Of a stretch of DNA of 64,000 bases, positions 38,506 through 61,917 are shown in pieces (position 1 is the stretch's first letter; each line of letters opens with the position of its first letter). Both the position numbers and the translations under genes were made by a program. This DNA comes from Escherichia phage EPFV3-03/2025. Where the stretch lies: the sequence record PV435126.1; one strand, given 5' to 3'. Under the pieces are notes generated by a model. It was not told the DNA's origin. It searched no databases and saw only the letters and a program-made list of their open reading frames with translations.

Positions 38506-39267
38506 TTACAGTTCCATAAAGTTTTCTACGATGTCAATAAATGTTTTATCAGAGAAAGCGTCAACCGCCCCGTTAAACCAAACTGGGATGCCGCGATCCT
38601 CATACTGGTAAATGTCACTACGTGAAATGCCATTCTCCCCTAAATGCTGTGAGTCGTATTTGTTAACGATCAGTAGTTTAGTCCCCTTATTACAGGCAGG
38701 GAATAGCTCCCAGTTAAAATTGATAACTGTGTTGGAGCACCCTACAAGGATAACCATATCATTGCTCGTCAGAGAAGTCAACAGGTCATACATGTCTACA
38801 TACTTTGGAGCTACTTCTCCGAAGAACACTACATTAGGCTTGACCCAAGTATACTCGCTTGCATCTACCTCAGAGTATCCAATGTCTTTAATTACGTCAT
38901 TCCCTTCATCATCCTCATAAACTATTTCTGGCAAATACCCGTGGACATGCAAAATATCTTCATGTTTTACACCAGCACGCTCCAGCAAATCATCTACATT
39001 GGTGGTCAGGTTGATCACACGACCAGACCAGCGGGAATACCACTCAGCGATCCGGAGATGTGCAAGGTTAGGCTCAACACTCCCCAAAGCTACACGCCGT
39101 GCATTGTAAAAGTCATGTACCTTATAGTAGTTCTTGGCAAAGGTGTGGATGTTACACACCTCATCGATGCTGAAATTCTCCCACATTGCAGTGCCACCAG
39201 ATCGGAAAGTTGGGATACCAGATTCAGCGCTCAAACCAGCACCGGAGATAATGATCAGTCGTCGCAT
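38506..39267 (-). CDS. Sir2-family (sirtuin-like) NAD-dependent protein
   Basis: 253 aa; GAGLSAESGIPTFRS, NLTTNVDDLLERAG..HVHG and KPNVVFFGE match the three Sir2 signature regions; no CxxC zinc module seen. Confidence 0.75.
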   Translation of the reverse strand: MRRLIIISGAGLSAESGIPTFRSGGTAMWENFSIDEVCNIHTFAKNYYKVHDFYNARRVALGSVEPNLAHLRIAEWYSRWSGRVINLTTNVDDLLERAGVKHEDILHVHGYLPEIVYEDDEGNDVIKDIGYSEVDASEYTWVKPNVVFFGEVAPKYVDMYDLLTSLTSNDMVILVGCSNTVINFNWELFPACNKGTKLLIVNKYDSQHLGENGISRSDIYQYEDRGIPVWFNGAVDAFSDKTFIDIVENFMEL

Positions 39268-39275
39268 AAGTGTCC

Positions 39276-39626
39276 TCAGTAGATGTTTTGTTTAATCTCT
39301 ATTCCAAACTTTTTAAACGAGTCAGCAGCAAGCATGAATTTACGAGCCGCTGATGGGTTAGAAGTATGCACGAAAATCTTCACGTTGTCAACTACAGGAG
39401 GCTTACCAAATACAAATTTTTCTTCCAGCATAGATAGGCAATCGTACCCTTCAAATACCTCTCCAAGGTCGTTGTCCATGTGCCACTCAGAAACGCGCCT
39501 GTAGAGCTTTCCCTTATCGTTAATAAAATCAATAAACTCAGAGGAATTCTTTAGCCAAAGAGCATCTGGGAGCCCATAATTTGACGGATCTCTCAAGTCA
39601 TCCAGCCACACAATCAACTTCTTCAT
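39276..39626 (-). CDS. hypothetical protein, possible receiver-like RNA-repair accessory domain
   Basis: 116 aa; N-terminal KLIVWLDDLRDP strand-loop; translationally coupled to the RNA ligase gene. Confidence 0.4.
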   Translation of the reverse strand: MKKLIVWLDDLRDPSNYGLPDALWLKNSSEFIDFINDKGKLYRRVSEWHMDNDLGEVFEGYDCLSMLEEKFVFGKPPVVDNVKIFVHTSNPSAARKFMLAADSFKKFGIEIKQNIY

Positions 39627-40558
39627 TGCATATAGTCCTCGTTGTGGAAATAGCAGTCAAGTATCTCACGGCGTTCCTGCTCCAGGAGGCAATTCCACAC
39701 ATCTTCTGTGTAGTTTCTACGAATGAAGTTTACCATGCCGTAAAACTCTTCGTCAACACGTTTAAAGATATCATCATCCCAAATCTTCCAAGCTCTACCC
39801 CTCATTACGACCTTCCGTGCCAGATAGTAGGGAGACTTGATCTTTAGTTGCAGGTCATAAGGGTAGTAAGACTTACGGATCATATACCCTTCGCCCCTTG
39901 TTTCTGCAGCCAACTCTTTTGCATAGCTGAACGGAATTTCACGCACAGTGTGAGGACGTTTTGCACCAAGGTATTTGGCAATACCGTCTAAAGCTGCTTC
40001 TGGTAGCATTATTCCAGAATCATTGTATCGGCAACCGATCAAATAGGCACCATGATCTTCCTGAACAATATGCGGGTCTGAAGGGTGACAAATTTCAAAC
40101 ATGAATGTCATGTTTTCATGGCCCATAACCTTCTTGATAAGATCTAAATTACCACATTGCTCCTGGATTGTTTCCTTTGCGAGGTTACAATATGGAGAAT
40201 CAAGAGACCCTGTTGTTGAGAACAACAGTTCACCTTTGTGAGATGATACCACACCAAGGAATCCGTTCTTTTTCTCTACCGCCGTCACAAGTTTATTGTC
40301 AGGCAGGTTGGTGGAATTTTCTCCCAAGTTAAATACTTTTGTGAAGGGCCATGCCACAACATTTCCTTCATTACCGACAACAATTCCTCGGCACTCTAGT
40401 AAACGCGGAGACAAATGCCATAGATTGTTGTAAAATACTTTTCTGGCATATTTATAGATCTTTAACCCAAGATCTGGATAATACCGACTGGTTACAAGAC
40501 CTTTATCCACTAAATCATCTGCATTAAAATACTTCATCATACATTCCTCGTTTGTCAT
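39623..40558 (-). CDS. RNA ligase-like nucleotidyltransferase
   Basis: 311 aa; candidate motif I KKNG, motif IV EGYMIRK, motif V LKIK; separate from the DNA ligase; next to the Pnkp-like genes. Confidence 0.6.
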   Translation of the reverse strand: MTNEECMMKYFNADDLVDKGLVTSRYYPDLGLKIYKYARKVFYNNLWHLSPRLLECRGIVVGNEGNVVAWPFTKVFNLGENSTNLPDNKLVTAVEKKNGFLGVVSSHKGELLFSTTGSLDSPYCNLAKETIQEQCGNLDLIKKVMGHENMTFMFEICHPSDPHIVQEDHGAYLIGCRYNDSGIMLPEAALDGIAKYLGAKRPHTVREIPFSYAKELAAETRGEGYMIRKSYYPYDLQLKIKSPYYLARKVVMRGRAWKIWDDDIFKRVDEEFYGMVNFIRRNYTEDVWNCLLEQERREILDCYFHNEDYMQ

Positions 40559-40601
40559 TTTGTCACTCTATCTTGCCACACAAATAAACTAGTGTCAACA
40601 C

Positions 40602-40630
40602 TTGAAATGAACAAAAGAGTTATGTATACT
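40602..40630 (+). promoter_or_regulatory. sigma70-like promoter
   Basis: TTGAAA-N17-TGTATACT upstream of the first plus-strand gene. Confidence 0.5.
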
Positions 40631-40658
40631 ACCATTAAAATTAAAACGGAGGATTACT

Positions 40659-41069
40659 ATGTCTAAAATGCTGTATATCGTGCGTGGTCTACCAGGTTCT
40701 GGCAAATCAACACTGGCAAATGCACTATCTTTAGAGGGGCTGTACCCACATTTTGAGAACGACATGTTCTGGTACGACGACGATGGAAATTACAACTGGG
40801 ATGCAAGTAAAGTAACACTTGCAGCAAAATGGTGCAAAGATAACGTAGAAGATATGATGCGTATGGGATACGACCGTGTCGTGGTAAGTAATACGTTTAC
40901 AAAAGAAAAACATGTGCAAGAATATGTTGACATGGCAATCAGTCATGGGTATAGTTATACTGTGATCGTGGTTGAAAACCGCCACGGTAATAAGAGCATT
41001 CATGATGTTCCAGATAGGGTTGTGGACCGTATGGAGCGTGAGCTTAAAAACTGCATTAAACTAAAATGA
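40659..41069 (+). CDS. polynucleotide 5'-kinase (Pnkp kinase-domain-like)
   Basis: 136 aa; P-loop GLPGSGKST and VSNT resemble the T4 Pnkp kinase domain. Confidence 0.7.
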   Translation: MSKMLYIVRGLPGSGKSTLANALSLEGLYPHFENDMFWYDDDGNYNWDASKVTLAAKWCKDNVEDMMRMGYDRVVVSNTFTKEKHVQEYVDMAISHGYSYTVIVVENRHGNKSIHDVPDRVVDRMERELKNCIKLK

Positions 41070-41076
41070 GGGATGT

Positions 41077-41631
41077 ATGAAATATTTTGTAACAAGCGAT
41101 ACACACTTTCTCCACCAGCGAGTCATGGAGTTTGATTCATGTCAAAAACACAGATCTCAGTATGATCACAATCTTGACAGTATGAACGAAGGAATCATTG
41201 CAGAGTGGAACTCTGTTGTATCACCAGAAGACACTGTGTTTCACTTGGGCGATATTGCATGCACTAAGGATAAGAATATCAACAACTTATTTCCAGATAT
41301 TCTAAATATGTTGAACGGACATATTATTCTTGTTCGTGGTAACCATGACACAAGGACGACTGTCAGAATTATGAAAGAGTTCGGTCATGAGGTTGTAGAT
41401 TATTACGAGCTTCGCCACAACAAGAATTTGATCTGTATGAGCCATTACCAGTTTGCAAAGTGGAACAGAAAGCCTCACGGATCAGTCCAACTGTTCGGTC
41501 ATGCTCACGGAACCACACAGCAGTTGTTTGGCAGGCAGTTTGATGTCGGTTGGGATGTGTGGGGGAGACTCTTACCATTAGAAGAGGCATACCGTATTGC
41601 AATGAGTCTTGCTATTGACAGCGGGGAGTAA
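41077..41631 (+). CDS. calcineurin-like metallophosphoesterase (candidate 2',3' end-healing phosphatase)
   Basis: 184 aa; SDTHF, GDI, GNHD, GHAH motifs. Confidence 0.8.
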   Translation: MKYFVTSDTHFLHQRVMEFDSCQKHRSQYDHNLDSMNEGIIAEWNSVVSPEDTVFHLGDIACTKDKNINNLFPDILNMLNGHIILVRGNHDTRTTVRIMKEFGHEVVDYYELRHNKNLICMSHYQFAKWNRKPHGSVQLFGHAHGTTQQLFGRQFDVGWDVWGRLLPLEEAYRIAMSLAIDSGE

Positions 41632-41678
41632 TCCCTGCTATTTTAAAGAAAATTGCCACACAAGGAGAATCAGGAGAT

Positions 41679-42029
41679 ATGAAAGAGGAGGATAAGCTGC
41701 CATACCTTAAAGTCCCATTTGGAATACTGTCTATGTCAAAAGTTTTGAATGATACAACTGGAGAGGTTGTTGTTCTTGACTTGTATGACAAGATCGTATA
41801 CTGCTACCTGCACAACTGGTATAAGCTTGGAGGAAATTCACGCTTCACACCCAGCACAAGGAAAATTGCAGCAGATGTTGGGATAAAGAAAACAAAAGCA
41901 GCAGCGTGCGTTAAAACTTTAGAATGTGCAGGCGTGGTTGAAATATCCACACAAGGGAGAGGTAAAAGATGCACATTTTCCAAAGTTTTGCCACCAGAAG
42001 AGGTTATTCGAATGTCAACAACTGGTTAG
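41679..42029 (+). CDS. winged-helix DNA-binding protein, candidate initiator or repressor
   Basis: 116 aa; STRKIAADVGIKKTKAAACVKTLECAGVV helix-turn-helix-like segment; followed by an iteron array. Confidence 0.5.
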   Translation: MKEEDKLPYLKVPFGILSMSKVLNDTTGEVVVLDLYDKIVYCYLHNWYKLGGNSRFTPSTRKIAADVGIKKTKAAACVKTLECAGVVEISTQGRGKRCTFSKVLPPEEVIRMSTTG

Positions 42030-42090
42030 ACCAGTAAAAACTTAAATATCTGTACTATAAGGATTCGTATGTTTTATGTCCATCCAAGAG

Positions 42091-42176
42091 CAGAGGGTAG
42101 TAACTGTCCGTAATACGGACACTACTGCCCGTCACGCGGACACATCTGCCCGTAATACGGACACTAACTGTCCGCA
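42091..42176. repeat. four tandem 21-22 bp repeats each containing the dyad GyCCG-N5-CGGAC
   Basis: taactgtccgtaatacggacac / tactgcccgtcacgcggacac / atctgcccgtaatacggacac / taactgtccgcaatacggacac, directly abutting. Confidence 0.85.
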
Positions 42177-42690
42177 ATACGGACACATAAAGAATATAAC
42201 TAAAATAACTAAATAATAAAAAATAAAAGATCTAGTACTTATGGTACTAAAGTACATATACTTAACTTATGTAGAATATACTAGATCCTAAGTACCATGT
42301 TTTAAATTTATTACTTACTATTGGTAGTGTCGGCCCTTCATTGGCACTCGCCTACGAGGGGCGAGATGCCGGGCCTCCATAGTGCACACAATAACAGGAG
42401 TGCATACATGCAGGACTGTTAACATGTGTGGGAGCGAAGCGATAGCGCAGGCCAAAGGCCGAGCACTAATGTGGACCACCGACGAAAGCTTGCCAGCGCC
42501 GTAAGGAGTCGGTTGAGAGCCTCCCGCGAGAGTTTAGTTAAAGTTTATGTGTGGAAACGGACAGGAAGGCCCCTAAATCGCCACACAGCTGCGTAAACTA
42601 TACCAAGTAAGGCAATCGCACCAGTTTGATAGAAAAGCTCGTTACAAAGCGATACAGTGAGTTTTTCTATAACTTGAAGAGGAGGCAGTT

Positions 42691-43269
42691 ATGAGTTCAC
42701 GCAAAGATGACCGCGAAAAGATTGCAAAACGTTATCAGAATGAAGAACAGATGGAGAAAACTTTCAAGTGGAAGCCAGGTTTCCAGCGTAATCATTCTAA
42801 CGCTCGTGATCGTAAGCATCCGGATAAGTGGCTAACACCGCCAAATGATGGCATGCAGGTTGGTGATGAGAAGGAGCTATCGCCTGGAAAAGATGGCAAC
42901 TACATTCGCACTAAGGACGCTGGTCCAAAGGATGACAGCTATCTTGTAGATAAGGTTCTTGATGGTATTGATGTAGATGTTGACACCACACGGAACTTTT
43001 TTCTTGGGTGGTATCGCACAGGTTTTTTCGACATCAAGGCCATTCGTCGTGTTTGTGATATTAAAAAGTCTGCATATGATGACGACTCGTTACATCGCAC
43101 CCTGAGGCAATATTCAGAAAGATATGGTCATCCGGTTATCACTCTTGACGATGTTGACGAAGTGATGTATCATGCAGAGGTTGTTGCAGGCAGATTTGGT
43201 GATGCATATCTTGATATCCTTTCTGCAAACGATGAGGTAATGTTGAATAAGATTTACTACGAACGTTGA
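42691..43269 (+). CDS. hypothetical protein
   Basis: 192-aa ORF with ggagg RBS. Confidence 0.5.
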   Translation: MSSRKDDREKIAKRYQNEEQMEKTFKWKPGFQRNHSNARDRKHPDKWLTPPNDGMQVGDEKELSPGKDGNYIRTKDAGPKDDSYLVDKVLDGIDVDVDTTRNFFLGWYRTGFFDIKAIRRVCDIKKSAYDDDSLHRTLRQYSERYGHPVITLDDVDEVMYHAEVVAGRFGDAYLDILSANDEVMLNKIYYER

Positions 43270-43279
43270 GGAGAGCTTA

Positions 43280-43468
43280 ATGAACAATCCGGTAGCAAAG
43301 AACTGTAATAAGTTCAACAAGTCTGCAATTCACACTGACAGGAAAAAGAGCTGGTCACCGGACATTGACGAGGAGCTTGAGAATTACTTTGAAGATCTGG
43401 TTACCAATGCAGGTGAGGTTGCGATTAAAGAATACGCAGACAGGAGGGATAAGGCCGGAATCTGTTGA
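43280..43468 (+). CDS. hypothetical protein
   Basis: 62-aa ORF. Confidence 0.4.
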   Translation: MNNPVAKNCNKFNKSAIHTDRKKSWSPDIDEELENYFEDLVTNAGEVAIKEYADRRDKAGIC

Positions 43469-43544: not shown

Positions 43545-43787
43545 ATGTTTAAGGTTAAGCTCGTTTTCCGTTCCATGAATGAGGATTATTTAGAAGATGA
43601 AGGTGAATTTCGTGCACTAGATGATGCAATAGATTTTGCCAACGACTTAGCTTGTATGAACACGGGTTATGGGTTGTGTTGTTGGGACGGTGGTATTCAG
43701 ATCGGTGATAGCAAAATCTTCTACTTCTACCCTGAGCCGGATAACAAACAAATTAAGTATGTTTTATTTATTTGTGCTTTACAATGA
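43545..43787 (+). CDS. hypothetical acidic protein
   Basis: 80-aa ORF. Confidence 0.45.
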   Translation: MFKVKLVFRSMNEDYLEDEGEFRALDDAIDFANDLACMNTGYGLCCWDGGIQIGDSKIFYFYPEPDNKQIKYVLFICALQ

Positions 43788-44074
43788 GGTTGTTTTCGTG
43801 TATCATGATGAATATCCAATTTAAAGATGAATTTGATGGCTTTATCTCCGGATGCTTTGAAACAGGGTTCGGAGAATGCTGAGTTCCCCTTAGAGGGCTT
43901 GATAGTGCACCACACTTAAAATGGTAGGGGCAGCCAGCACATGACGATGTGACCCCAGCCAACCTGTAATAAGGTCGAGCCAAAGCGCGGTAATGGGTCT
44001 CTGGTAACCCACTTGTTGGGTCTTGTGGTCCAGGACGCTGGGCAAGTCGCAGGGAATACCACCCTGCGGCGAAC

Positions 44075-45035: not shown

Positions 45036-45134
45036 GCTAGGTAAGCCCTTTGGCAAGGGCGAGGATTTTTAATCCTGAAAATAGACGAGGTAGTCGTTGA
45101 ATACATAGGTGGTTCGATTCCATCACCTAGCACC
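45036..45134 (+). tRNA. atypical oversized tRNA-like element (about 99 nt; anticodon uncertain, loop candidate tttttaa)
   Basis: Perfect 7-bp acceptor pairing gctaggt/acctagc, D-arm gccc-tttggcaa-gggc, T-arm ggtgg-ttcgatt-ccatc, but about 30 nt between anticodon arm and T-arm. Confidence 0.4.
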
Positions 45135-49744: not shown

Positions 49745-50176
49745 ATGGGGAATAAGATGCCACAGGAAGAAATGATTTCCTACGAAATCATCTACGAACC
49801 TGACACTAAAGATGCTCACGGTGAGTGGATGAGTAAAGACACCATCAAAAAGGCTAAAGATAACTGGGACGCAGCATACGCCGCAGGCCTAGTTTCTGAA
49901 AACCTTTTTCACTTGACCTCTACAGATGCTTTCACCATTGAAAAGACGTGGATTCAAGAAGAGTTTGATGTTGTAGTGATTGGCACTGAGCAGGTCATCA
50001 AGGCTGGCTCTTGGGTTGCTAAAGTTAAATACAATAATCCTGAATTATGGGAAGCTAAGAAGGCTGGCATTGTTGGTGGCCTAAGCATTCAGGCAACAGG
50101 TAATGTTGATGAAGAGACTGGTGAAATTACCAACGTAAACTTCGGAATCAGTGTTGTAGAAGAGGGCAATGAATAA
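49745..50176 (+). CDS. hypothetical head-module protein
   Basis: ORF 49601..50176 trimmed to a start beyond the portal stop. Confidence 0.4.
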   Translation: MGNKMPQEEMISYEIIYEPDTKDAHGEWMSKDTIKKAKDNWDAAYAAGLVSENLFHLTSTDAFTIEKTWIQEEFDVVVIGTEQVIKAGSWVAKVKYNNPELWEAKKAGIVGGLSIQATGNVDEETGEITNVNFGISVVEEGNE

Positions 50177-51153
50177 TGTCTGAAAAAACGATTACTATTA
50201 AAGAGAAGGGGATTGCCCTGTGCCATAAGGCGCAAGGCTATAGCGCTAACAACAGACCTGTATCTCTTTTGATGAAGAGTGATCTTCAGCCTGAGCAGTT
50301 AACAGAAGATATTGTTAAGGCACTTCGCCAAGTTACTGTGGAGCTTAGTTTTGAAGAATACCTGCGTCGTTTCTTCGATATGTGGTATGACGATGCCAAG
50401 GCACTTGCACACATGCTTGGTTTTGAGGTTGAAGAGGAAGCTTGGGCTAAAGAGCATCCTGATTGGGAATGGGCGCAAGCTGACGCAGAGTCTTGTATTG
50501 CATGGCTGGAAGAGCGTTGTGATAACGTGACCATTCATAAAGCTGCAAAAGAAGGCAAGCAGCTTAGTGTGGTAGATCAGTACAGCCTGTTAAAAACACA
50601 ACAGATTTTTGAACAAGTAACCGCTGATCTCTTCGATAAAGAAGGGAACCTGATCAAGGCGGTACAGGAACCTACTGAGGTAGATAAAACTACCGAGGTG
50701 GATGATGTTGCAAAATCCGCAAATACCGAGGAGAATCCGGTGGACGTAACCAAAACTAAAGAGTATCTGGATCTGCTGAAGCAAGTAGAAGAGCTGAAAG
50801 CAACCCAGAGTAAAGCTGAAGAAATCATCAAGGCCCAGGTTGAAGTTGAAAAAGCTAAAATGCTGACTAAAGCTCAAGCTTTAAGCTTTGTTGGTGAAGA
50901 AGATCATGCAACCCTGGTTGACTTCATGCTGGAAAAAGCTAACGAACCTATTGTAGCTATGCTGGAGAAAGCTCAAGCCAAAATTGAAGAGCTGGAAGCA
51001 GAGGTGCATAAAACCAAAGAAGAGTTTGCCACCACTGAACATGGTAATGATGGCGAACCTGTTGTGGATGATATTGCAAAATCCGCAGAAGAAATTCTTG
51101 CTGAAAACGTTGCAAAAGCACTTGCTCGTGCACGTGCAGAATCTACCAAATAA
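50176..51153 (+). CDS. putative scaffolding protein
   Basis: 325 aa, acidic and helix-rich (EELKATQSKAEEIIKAQVEVEKAK); between portal and capsid genes. Confidence 0.5.
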   Translation: MSEKTITIKEKGIALCHKAQGYSANNRPVSLLMKSDLQPEQLTEDIVKALRQVTVELSFEEYLRRFFDMWYDDAKALAHMLGFEVEEEAWAKEHPDWEWAQADAESCIAWLEERCDNVTIHKAAKEGKQLSVVDQYSLLKTQQIFEQVTADLFDKEGNLIKAVQEPTEVDKTTEVDDVAKSANTEENPVDVTKTKEYLDLLKQVEELKATQSKAEEIIKAQVEVEKAKMLTKAQALSFVGEEDHATLVDFMLEKANEPIVAMLEKAQAKIEELEAEVHKTKEEFATTEHGNDGEPVVDDIAKSAEEILAENVAKALARARAESTK

Positions 51154-54252: not shown

Positions 54253-54717
54253 ATGCTAAAGGTTAAATGTCAAACCAGGTTCAACCTAAAGCGTTTAGAT
54301 CGCTTTTACAAAGACCTTGTGAAACTCGAAAGCAAAACAATAACCTACGGCTTTTATGATGAACCTCACCCGTCAGGCTTAAATATGGCAACATTGGCAG
54401 CTATTCACAACTTCGGTTGGAACGGACTGCCTGTTCGCAATTTCATGGAGACGGCCTTTGCATTTCACAGCACGCAACTGCAGACCTTGACAGAAAAATT
54501 GTTGAGAGCTATGGCTAGAGGATCAAGTGCAGAGGCTGTTCTTAAGCAGATGGGAGACACAGGGGCCAAAGCTATCCAGTTTGTTATTGAGGCTGGGCAG
54601 TTTAGTAACCCTACTGTTAGTGAGCAGTGGGCACAAGAGAAGGGCTTCAACGAGGCTATGCGGCATTACGATGTGCTGCTGGAATCTGCAACCTTTAAAA
54701 TTGGACAGCAAAAATAA
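54253..54717 (+). CDS. hypothetical virion morphogenesis protein
   Basis: ORF 54241..54717, start probably MLKVKCQ. Confidence 0.5.
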   Translation: MLKVKCQTRFNLKRLDRFYKDLVKLESKTITYGFYDEPHPSGLNMATLAAIHNFGWNGLPVRNFMETAFAFHSTQLQTLTEKLLRAMARGSSAEAVLKQMGDTGAKAIQFVIEAGQFSNPTVSEQWAQEKGFNEAMRHYDVLLESATFKIGQQK

Positions 54718-61032: not shown

Positions 61033-61917
61033 ATGCCAAGCAATATAGTTGATGAAAAAGACCTGTACAAGCCTCAAGAGGTTAAATCTCCAAAGGCTGA
61101 AAAGGCAGAGCAGCAAGCTGAAAGCGATGTAAAATACACTATGTTTGTCAGCGGTCTTAACTATGGTGGTCGCAATACGGAGATGAAGGGTAAAAACTTT
61201 ACTAACGATCTTGCCATCATCTTCGATCAGATTGAGAACTACTCTTTCAAACATACGGTTGATAAGACTGATTTTGCGGTGGAAGATAAATCTACCCTGT
61301 CAGACCACGCTGTAATTAAAGATGGTGTATTTTCTTTTACTGGTAGGGTAAATACATCACCACATATAATCTATGAGCAAAACTACATTGACAGGAATAC
61401 TGACTCTAAAAACCCTGCAGCATCTATGCGACCAGGCGCTGCACTAGAGGCTTTGACTGAGATCATTAATAAGCGCCAGTTGGTTTCTTTGGTTACCGAG
61501 GAGAGACTCCTTGAGAACTACATCATAACCAGCCTTTCTGCCAACAAGTCTGTTGGTGAAGGTGCTGCGATGGTGTTTGATGTAGAACTTACAGAGTTCC
61601 GCACATTCTACTTGAACAAGGTTGTTAATGCAACTGTATACAGCAACCCTAAGAAAGTAGGCAAGACCCAGCAAAAAGGTGCTGTCAACGACTGTAAGAA
61701 TGGCAGCAACGTAGGTAACAAGAGGGACACAGGGGCATTTGCAGACACTGCATCCACAAATGCCGCAGAAGAGTGGCAGCCATACAAATCTATGATGTGG
61801 ACGGATGAAAACGGTGTTACTCAATCTGCTGCGGATTGGTATTATCAGGAATATGGAAGACCTTCTACCATAGTCCCATCTGAGCAGGGAAACTACAACA
61901 AAGTTAACGGAAAATAA
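61033..61917 (+). CDS. hypothetical tail or baseplate protein
   Basis: ORF 61006..61917, start probably MPSNIV. Confidence 0.5.
   Translation: MPSNIVDEKDLYKPQEVKSPKAEKAEQQAESDVKYTMFVSGLNYGGRNTEMKGKNFTNDLAIIFDQIENYSFKHTVDKTDFAVEDKSTLSDHAVIKDGVFSFTGRVNTSPHIIYEQNYIDRNTDSKNPAASMRPGAALEALTEIINKRQLVSLVTEERLLENYIITSLSANKSVGEGAAMVFDVELTEFRTFYLNKVVNATVYSNPKKVGKTQQKGAVNDCKNGSNVGNKRDTGAFADTASTNAAEEWQPYKSMMWTDENGVTQSAADWYYQEYGRPSTIVPSEQGNYNKVNGK

Follow-up and report, generated by a model that had tools for sequence, protein, structure and literature searches.

The window analysed here, a 64,000-nt stretch of DNA from Escherichia phage EPFV3-03/2025 (GenBank:PV435126.1), contains at 41679-42315 a gene for a small winged helix-turn-helix (wHTH) protein, four palindromic iterons and an AT-rich tract, which we propose, with moderate confidence, to be the replication-origin module of the rV5-like (Vequintavirus) phages, i.e., a cognate set of initiator, iterons and unwinding element. 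The proposal is based on homology of the protein to proven initiators and on the joint replacement of protein and repeats in a divergent relative. A sequence-only reading had described the locus as an origin of the iteron plus unwinding-element type; the architecture it described, a gene for a DNA-binding protein with cognate iterons and an AT tract, was retained upon analysis, whereas the origin function is one that we infer. The anatomy of the locus, the family and fold of the protein, the uniqueness of the repeats, the conservation of the tract and the co-replacement were computed, and binding of the repeats, melting of the tract and use as an origin are predicted from them.

Over 40600-43300, identity of the window was 99.6% with Escherichia phage vB_EcoM_SYGMH1 and 90-98% with 117 further rV5-like phages of Vequintavirus; this identifies the window, by sequence, as DNA of an rV5-like coliphage of the genus Vequintavirus. 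Statements on the whole genome (~137 kb) refer to the 64-kb window plus the remaining ~73 kb of the SYGMH1 genome, and the locus alignment comprised nine Vequintavirus genomes picked to span the diversity. The protein and the noncoding locus were present in 118 of the ~119 Vequintavirus-type records holding the neighbouring genes. The features of the locus are as follows.

41615-41644, + strand: promoter-like site of sigma70 type immediately before the wHTH gene, TTGACA-18-TATTTT with TG
41679-42029, + strand: gene for the wHTH protein, 116 amino acids (aa), of DUF6945 / RepA_N N-terminal-domain type, N-terminal domain only
42054-42082, - strand: leftward promoter-like site, TGGACA-17-TATAGT, a weak candidate, antisense to the 3' end of the wHTH gene
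42101-42186, no strand assigned: four abutting iterons of 21-22 bp, unique in the genome, copy number 4, 3 or 2
42187-42315, no strand assigned: AT-rich tract of 129 bp abutting the iterons, candidate DNA-unwinding element
42320-42625, + strand: conserved structured RNA-like element, noncoding, with a 5' hairpin module (42326-42378) and a core (42425-42623)
42627-42690, + strand: invariant hairpin (42627-42672; helix in alignment columns 315-335 / 348-366) and ribosome-binding site before the next gene
42691-43269, + strand: gene for a genus-restricted 192-aa protein (PHROG 12226), the right-hand conserved flank of the module

The putative initiator, its iterons and the AT-rich tract

The open reading frame (ORF) at 41679-42029 corresponds to ORF 79 of rV5 and ORF072 of FV3, and its product is named 'putative transcriptional regulator' in GenBank records and 'replication initiation protein' in RefSeq and in PHROG 12838, which it matched with an E value of 4e-76. 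Two Pfam families were recorded below threshold, DUF6945 (PF22182; 27.1 bits, cut-off 28) and HTH_36 (23.1 bits). A single-sequence phmmer search of the whole PDB returned one significant match (E 1.8e-6, residues 13-90), to 4RO3. This fragment, which scores 80.8 bits on DUF6945, is the RepA N-terminal domain from PLE, a satellite in Vibrio cholerae (Barth et al. 2020, PMC7145576). The RepA of PLE is needed for replication of the satellite, is structurally of the RepA_N type and, in electrophoretic mobility shift assays, bound semi-palindromic iterons ('repeat 3') in the satellite's origin (PMC7145576). We relied on the single-sequence search because a profile search of the PDB, which also matched 4RO3, was circular, the 4RO3 fragment being within the profile; that match was set aside.

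An AlphaFold2 model built from 15 aligned family members, with no templates and with 4RO3 excluded, had a predicted local distance difference test (pLDDT) score of 80.2; a single-sequence model (pLDDT 38) was not used. Comparison of the former with the PDB by Foldseek revealed that ranks 1-8 were all RepA_N-type N-terminal domains, with 4RO3 first (template modelling score, 0.66), followed by the same wHTH fold of RepA from the Staphylococcus aureus plasmids pSK41 and pTZ2162 (4PQL, 4PT7, 4PTA and 5KBJ; ranks 3-8, probability ~1.0), and that regulators of the MarR, ArsR, DtxR and LexA types ranked below the RepA_N domains. The profile matches and the model bear out the earlier designation of the product as a winged-helix protein.

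The family is tiny, consisting of 5 proteins by a word-index search, 11 by a full HMMER search of 1.8 billion representatives and 15 by a profile search, which brought ~10 additional members of Seunavirus type; a pattern scan of IMG/VR for relatives confirmed none. One of the few distant relatives found, a metagenomic protein of 228 aa (P0011), has a GIY-YIG nuclease fused to a DUF6945 domain, an architecture like that of ICP1 Odn. In the window protein, the wHTH domain takes up the whole 116 aa (relatives, 105-153 aa), whereas RepA_N initiators have a C-terminal domain carrying host- or replisome-specific functions (PMC7145576). As this domain is missing, the protein was not filed as a full member of the RepA_N family. 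Judging from sequence and model, it corresponds to the dimeric, iteron-binding winged helix of initiators, present on its own and with a predicted function. A split initiator, in which the downstream 192-aa protein would supply the missing C-terminal domain, was also considered and was rejected, the 192-aa protein having no Pfam match.

The iteron array starts 72 bp past the stop codon of the wHTH gene, outside the ORF, and its units (42101-42122, 42122-42143, 42143-42164 and 42165-42186) have start-to-start distances of 21, 21 and 22 bp. The same distances separate the centres of the 17-bp palindromic cores, located at 42105-42121 (TGTCCGTAATACGGACA), 42126-42142, 42147-42163 and 42169-42185, in agreement with the spacing of two helical turns noted before. 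The dyad GTCCG-N5-CGGAC had been ascribed to all four repeats; the four repeats are there, and the exact dyad is confined to units 1 and 4, in which the palindrome is TGTCCGTA-A-TACGGACA, with arms of 8 bp and a single central A. The left arm of units 2 and 3 reads GCCCG in the window, and unit 2 has GTCCG in most relatives. This form matches that of RepA_N targets, i.e., direct repeats each of which is an inverted repeat converging on an A/T centre; RepA_N dimers bind iterons made of inverted 8-9 bp sub-repeats around such a centre (PMC7145576), and the 8-bp arms around a central A are like those of the staphylococcal RepA_N iterons.

An 18-nt unit pattern had 6 matches in the window, all inside the array, compared with 0.02 expected, and the dyad was found nowhere else in the ~137-kb genome. 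A search of 185,579 bacterial species genomes gave 107 stretches with one match each, in unrelated and mostly high-GC taxa, and no arrays. Copy number in the nine-genome alignment was four in most, three in A135 and two in YN3, with the deletions in exact register, as tandem arrays behave; the existence of phages with two and three iterons shows that these phages can do with fewer sites. The spacer at 42030-42100 was one of the most variable parts of the locus (pairwise diversity, 0.126). A few GenBank records label the array merely as 'repeat_region'. It was also noticed that the record of Campylobacter phage A141 (GenBank:MG065672.1) begins exactly at the first iteron (window equivalent, 42101) and ends with the wHTH gene; sister records open at unrelated positions, and this start is therefore probably an assembly break at the tandem repeat.

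The AT-rich DNA of about 130 bp that had been noted after the repeats measured 129 bp, with a GC content of 19-23% per 100-120 bp and of 7.5% in the first 40 bp; for windows of 120 bp, it shares the lowest GC value of the genome with one other region. Both of the small repeats described in it earlier were present: the tandem 9-mer ATAACTAAA, with copies at 42196 and 42205 (42196-42213), a word without further copies in the genome, and the inverted pair of 9 bp, GATCTAGTA (42229-42237) and TACTAGATC (42279-42287). In addition, the tract contains two GATC sites, a -10-like TGTAGAAT at 42271-42278, which is without a -35 and ~87 bp from the last iteron, and, on the minus strand at 42220-42232, GATCTTTTATTTT, a perfect match to the E. 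coli oriC 13-mer consensus; this was the sole match in 64 kb (0.11 expected), a weak observation made post hoc. Pairwise diversity of the tract was 0.018 compared with ~0.05 for the neighbouring genes, i.e., it is ~3 times more conserved, and the constraint on it is much stronger than base composition alone would require.

As to transcription, the equivalent of 41615-41644 is annotated as a sigma70-type promoter (P76) in the rV5 RefSeq record, and the intergenic region 41632-41678 is nearly invariant (pairwise diversity, 0.009); the wHTH gene is probably expressed early, by host RNA polymerase. The leftward site at 42054-42082, the -35 of which varies among relatives, was the only good sigma70 site in 42030-42700. 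On the + strand, no sigma70 site reaching at least 9/12 was found in 42030-42700, including by a relaxed custom scan, and a sigma70 promoter within the AT tract was rejected on this ground. No terminator was found between the wHTH gene and the 192-aa gene, nor between the promoter at 41615-41644 and the repeats.

Replacement and recurrence of the module

Sequence analysis of an IMG/VR contig (IMGVR_UViG_3300010279_000001, 137,418 bp; locus at 1900-2770), hereafter L131, revealed a divergent Vequintavirus whose flanks resemble those of the window (phosphoesterase, 89% identity; 192-aa protein, 82% identity) and in which 1) the wHTH allele is 143 aa long and 27% identical to the window protein (pairwise E 2e-8), 2) the place of the repeats is taken by an unrelated unit of ~20 bp, ATCTGATRCAAATATGTATC, which is present four to five times and has the dyad GATACA-N4-TGTATC, and 3) a different, A-rich sequence stands instead of the AT tract and extends to the same downstream boundary, which is the 5' end of the RNA element described below. 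Since protein, repeats and AT tract were all replaced between conserved flanks, they behave as one exchangeable unit, and this co-variation in a fixed context is the best evidence that the repeats are the predicted binding sites of the wHTH protein. In lambdoid phages, modules of initiator and origin specificity are exchanged likewise. In PLEs, too, the initiator allele is swapped together with the origin between related elements (PMC8263062).

Homologues of 105 aa (pairwise E 3e-6) were found at the divergent transcription switch of Seunavirus GAP31, Seunavirus EspYZU08 and Mydovirus KpS8, and one from Seunavirus (P0020) passes DUF6945 at 30.3 bits. In these loci, AGCCTATACTCAAATTGATA occurs twice as a direct repeat at a spacing of 23 bp, together with palindromes containing GATC and an AT-rich tract in which TATAAAATAAATAAAACA is repeated in tandem, and the Seunavirus module is located exactly at the GC-skew/transcription switch. 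The gene of a metagenomic member of 153 aa (P0014) lies near two tandem 23-bp repeats and a distal third copy, with an AT-rich tract between; the repeats of all these loci are direct, 20-23 bp long and spaced by 23 bp. The orientation of the gene relative to the repeats differs by lineage, whereas the adjacency of gene, repeats and AT tract is constant. The AT tracts of the different genera shared only short AT-rich/GATC k-mers, which were not collinear. One further match (L130) was dismissed as chance, being within coding DNA.

The Seunavirus/Mydovirus homologues (L013:3053-3370 and L014:3076-3393) head an operon with PRPP synthetase and nicotinamide phosphoribosyltransferase and come near the threshold on the Pfam family 'wHTH-PRTase associated' (25.3 bits, cut-off 27), and the sequence context hints at a regulatory role of the homologue in these genera. 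Initiators of the RepA_N-like type often also act as repressors. Neither a family member nor the RNA was found in the 13 kb examined of a phAPEC8-like phage. In this phage, Schickermooser (L012:1860-2045), the intergenic switch by the tRNA cluster has an AT-rich core between 56-nt inverted arms, in which (A)GTAC and AGATCT / ATCTAGTAC words abound; these words are also found at 42229-42300 of the window.

The adjoining RNA element, capsid-encoding plasmids and surrounding genes

The block at ~42320-42625 has a GC content of 48-57%, compared with 43% for the genome. Examination of its coding potential revealed stops in every frame and a synonymous excess in none. With Rfam 15, only tRNAs reached gathering scores, and at E<=5 the block had only a spurious match to rli43 (20.6 bits vs. 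a threshold of 100). BLAST searches of complete E. coli genomes found parts of the element on small circular plasmids, and nhmmer placed the core shared with them at 42425-42623. In reciprocal searches, the RNA was found only in 118 Vequintavirus genomes, one 137.6-kb 'plasmid' record, plasmids of ~13 kb and one 39.6-kb record with three copies.

Alignment of five phage and six plasmid copies, which represent about three independent lineages and thus few independent events, gave a consensus with 29 base pairs, 94.7% paired. Compensatory double changes were observed at 8 of the 29 pairs, compared with 0-2 in slid controls, and the observed value was reached in 0 of 500 shuffles. Four of the six pairs of helix 4 were changed, one plasmid (L128) having swapped the whole stem for a different complementary sequence; the 5' hairpin (42343-42370) has two more G-C to U-A exchanges relative to plasmid p190; and GGGAG/CTCCC has become GGAAG/CTTCC in L131, as read from its sequence. 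Within Vequintavirus alone there was 1 covarying pair, the divergence being too low. G.U wobbles on the + strand indicate that it is the sense strand that folds, and AAUGUGGA, GAGUCUCCCGCG and CCCCUAAAU are conserved unpaired motifs. By these sequence criteria, the block is a covariation-supported structured RNA of an undescribed class.

The ~13-kb circular E. coli plasmids (GenBank:NZ_CP020521.1, L124, 13,689 bp; L125-L129) encode a major capsid protein, a baseplate protein 52% identical to that at 61105-61719 of the window, another protein 45% identical to that at 54259-54681, and a tape-measure protein with 25% identity over 460 aa to an rV5-like phage protein. Their noncoding DNA of ~2.9 kb contains iteron arrays of their own and the shared RNA, which is downstream of four copies of CGGTAAATATTTCC and three copies of ATATCAAnnTGATAT, both iteron-like, and upstream of small ORFs and the gene for a 303-aa HTH protein resembling neither the wHTH protein nor the 192-aa protein. 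The rV5 iterons were absent from these plasmids. Based on the capsid and rV5-like tail genes, the plasmids are relatives of rV5-like phages, possibly satellites or mini phage-plasmids of Vequintavirus; the literature search found nothing on this plasmid family. Since the RNA adjoins iterons in both phages and plasmids, a role in replication initiation is a live possibility, and the RNA may belong to the same unit as the array or may be what the array regulates. One 'plasmid' of PLSDB (CP057073.1, 137,565 bp), deposited as an E. coli plasmid, non-mobilizable, from a culture of cattle faeces, is a complete Vequintavirus-like genome; it could represent a carrier state or phage contamination of the assembly.

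Around the module, genes for Sir2-like, RNA ligase 1, P-loop kinase (AAA_33) and metallophosphoesterase proteins were located at 38506-41631, around a divergent promoter region at ~40600; the kinase is annotated as polynucleotide kinase in some relatives, and the cluster, immediately upstream of the module and near tRNA genes, looks like one for RNA repair or NAD-related functions. A tRNA-like gene at 45036-45134 (+ strand) has a four-base anticodon (atcc) by ARAGORN, an Rfam tRNA score of only 35.5, and varied GenBank annotations (tRNA-OTHER, tRNA-Lys, Asp|Gly). A second GC-rich (51-57%) noncoding island at 43788-44074 is well conserved, with a diversity of 0.031, and has a promoter-like site ahead (43778-43806); its fold z-score over 43812-44074 was -1.3, which is not significant, and it had no match in the ~13-kb plasmids. 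Outside the window, SYGMH1 has ~1 kb of noncoding DNA (50,083-51,064) that opens with the genome's other lowest-GC window and includes short tandem repeats and repeated GC-rich blocks, e.g., CCCCGGTG[AG]TTGTCTCCC; this region may be a further candidate for an origin or a noncoding RNA and is possibly the 'non-coding' box of the rV5 genome map.

Origin function and alternative explanations

The origin of rV5 has been sought by AT/GC-skew analysis and was not located, the changes in skew tracking the direction of transcription (Kropinski 2013, PMC3606486). Our literature search found nothing that links Vequintavirus with a mapped origin, iterons, a transcriptome or satellites. An origin at the present locus is favoured by the family and fold of the protein, the single locus, the two-turn phasing, the abutment and conservation of the AT tract, the lack in it of a + strand sigma70 promoter of 9/12 or better and the 13-mer, and also by the RepA_N-like form of the repeats, the swap in L131, the recurrence of the arrangement in Seunavirus/Mydovirus and beside P0014, and the existence of phages with fewer iterons. 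In the proposed mechanism, the 116-aa protein would be made early from its sigma70-type promoter and its dimers would occupy the four palindromic iterons, whose two-turn spacing would put them on one face of the DNA; the nucleoprotein array would then strain the abutting ~20% GC tract until it melts, and the phage's own replisome, which is T7-like (gp4-type primase-helicase and Pol A), would load at the melted tract. Because the protein has no C-terminal recruitment domain, it probably would not recruit the replisome directly; entry would more likely occur through this opening of the DNA, possibly helped by transcription that runs on into the structured RNA.

Several points weigh against such an origin. 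The protein had no match to RepA_N (PF06970) at E<=1 and fell just below the DUF6945 cut-off; lacking a C-terminal domain, it may be only a DNA binder, and winged helices of the same type also serve as ordinary repressors. Classically, replisomes of the T7 type need no initiator protein and start at promoters that are transcribed. Neither a DnaA box (TTATCCACA, up to 1 mismatch) nor an IHF (integration host factor) consensus was found in 41950-42750, although this would be expected if the phage uses its own helicase-primase. The flip in GC skew ~1.5 kb left of the module coincides with the transcription switch and, as skew follows transcription in rV5-like phages, gives no independent support for an origin. 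The Seunavirus repeats are located between promoter region and wHTH start codon, the classic autoregulatory position, and the Seunavirus homologue scores comparably on HTH_IclR and 'wHTH-PRTase associated'. Finally, transcription probably runs through the array, as no terminator follows the wHTH gene, and the array might regulate the structured RNA behind it. The sequence-only reading had named a transcribed regulatory leader as the finding that would count against it; transcription through the array is probable, and the array may be part of such a leader.

The last points lead to an operator array, with the wHTH protein as a transcription regulator that has no replication role, an explanation that we consider possible, if on the unlikely side. 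The array would modulate reading from the early promoters (40602-40630 and 41615-41644) into the RNA and the tRNA/structural cluster, or would activate a weak promoter in the AT tract. Its location inside a probable transcription unit that runs from the wHTH gene to the 192-aa gene agrees with this, as does the -10-like sequence of the tract, which is common to the true sigma70 promoters of the Seunavirus/Mydovirus loci and a TAGAAT that is present upstream of the RNA in plasmid p190. The fold is, moreover, shared by regulators of the MarR, IclR and GntR types, and many GenBank records carry the regulator name. However, the nearest relatives by sequence and structure are DNA-binding domains of initiators, not regulators, and the candidate -10 is remote from the iterons and has no -35. 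The autoregulatory position of the Seunavirus repeats, which adjoin the wHTH start codon, has no counterpart in Vequintavirus, where the array follows the gene of the protein and autoregulation is thus no explanation. Moreover, 129 bp of near-invariant DNA of ~20% GC exceeds what a promoter needs, and the three lineages share only the adjacency of repeats and AT tract, with no fixed position relative to a promoter.

It is also conceivable, although we consider it unlikely, that iterons, AT tract and the ~300-nt RNA form one composite origin and that the ~13-kb plasmids are satellites tapping the helper machinery via a copied RNA. The swappable part (wHTH gene, iterons and AT tract) would supply specificity and DNA opening, and the constant RNA, transcribed through the opened region, would act as a primer, an R-loop or a replisome-recruiting RNA for the T7-type replisome; the satellites would retain their own iterons and copy the RNA of an rV5-like helper. 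Transcript-dependent origins, such as T4 oriF/oriG, the T7 primary origin and ColE1 RNA II, have no initiator/iteron array. Like them, the window has an AT-rich element adjoining a putatively transcribed region whose RNA could be a primer or R-loop; no sequence or Rfam similarity between the RNA element and any of them was found.

A pac-type site, at which the wHTH protein would act as a small-terminase-like recognition factor for headful packaging and whose neighbouring element satellite-like plasmids would share in order to be packaged, is very unlikely. The locus does head a rightward cluster with terminase and structural genes, the rV5 genome is circularly permuted, the A141 record opens at the first iteron, and plasmids with rV5-like tail genes share the adjoining element. 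On the other hand, the protein matched no terminase-small-subunit family and has initiators as its best relatives, the plasmids have no iterons, the A141 start is probably the assembly break mentioned above, with other records opening elsewhere, and the shared element has RNA-type covariation with G.U wobbles, which is unexpected for a duplex DNA site. ICP1 Odn is a phage origin-directed nuclease that reuses a RepA-type DNA-binding domain to recognise PLE iterons (Barth et al. 2021, PMC8263062). That the module is of a similar kind, a decoy, competitor or captured-satellite leftover with no part in the phage's own replication, is the least probable explanation: the domain is reused modularly (as in the GIY-YIG fusion P0011), the module is genus-restricted and swappable, and candidate satellites of rV5-like phages exist, yet Odn has a nuclease domain and targets a satellite origin, whereas the rV5 protein consists of one domain and has its sites in the phage's own genome, these being absent from the plasmids and present in bacterial genomes only as scattered single matches, and the near-universal presence of protein and locus in Vequintavirus-type records is that expected of a core function.

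By both sequence and fold, the closest relative of the DNA-binding domain is that of PLE RepA, and the two systems can be compared in several respects. PLE1 has three ~30-bp semi-palindromic iterons in noncoding DNA beside the gene, and the window has four of 21 bp. PLE RepA has a further C-terminal domain and PLE is a satellite dependent on phage ICP1, whereas the window belongs to a large virulent phage and its iterons abut the 129-bp AT tract and precede the structured RNA; binding and a requirement in replication have been shown for PLE and are predicted for the window from sequence. The staphylococcal RepA proteins had no significant sequence match to the window protein (E ~1), which lacks a Pfam RepA_N match and their C-terminal domain. 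In RepA_N plasmids the origin is usually inside the rep gene, whereas the window array is downstream of the gene. The origin of phage lambda has four dyad iterons ~20 bp apart, bound by dimers of the N-terminal wHTH of O and followed by an AT-rich region that melts; it is located inside gene O, the C-terminal part of O recruits P-DnaB, and nearby transcription activates the origin. The anatomy in the window is lambda-like, but there is no equivalent of the C-terminal domain of O and the repeats are outside the ORF; the window protein had no match to Phage_rep_O in Pfam, and the Seunavirus homologue only a faint one (E 0.017-0.07).

The rV5-like phages are widely isolated and are used for typing and biocontrol of E. 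coli O157, and their origin has never been located. The module defined here is a directly testable candidate for the origin and would offer an engineering handle, e.g., for replicon swaps and conditional replication. If the proposal is true, a RepA_N-type DNA-binding domain works without its C-terminal domain in a virulent phage of Gram-negative bacteria. While the initiator-iteron module itself is of the known RepA_N / PLE-RepA type, the structured RNA and its link to the plasmids are the most novel thing at the locus: an RNA common only to these phages and to capsid-encoding plasmids with rV5-like tail genes suggests an undescribed helper-satellite relationship as well as an undescribed RNA class, and a composite origin, if true, would be a new kind of RNA-containing phage origin, served by a new satellite family.

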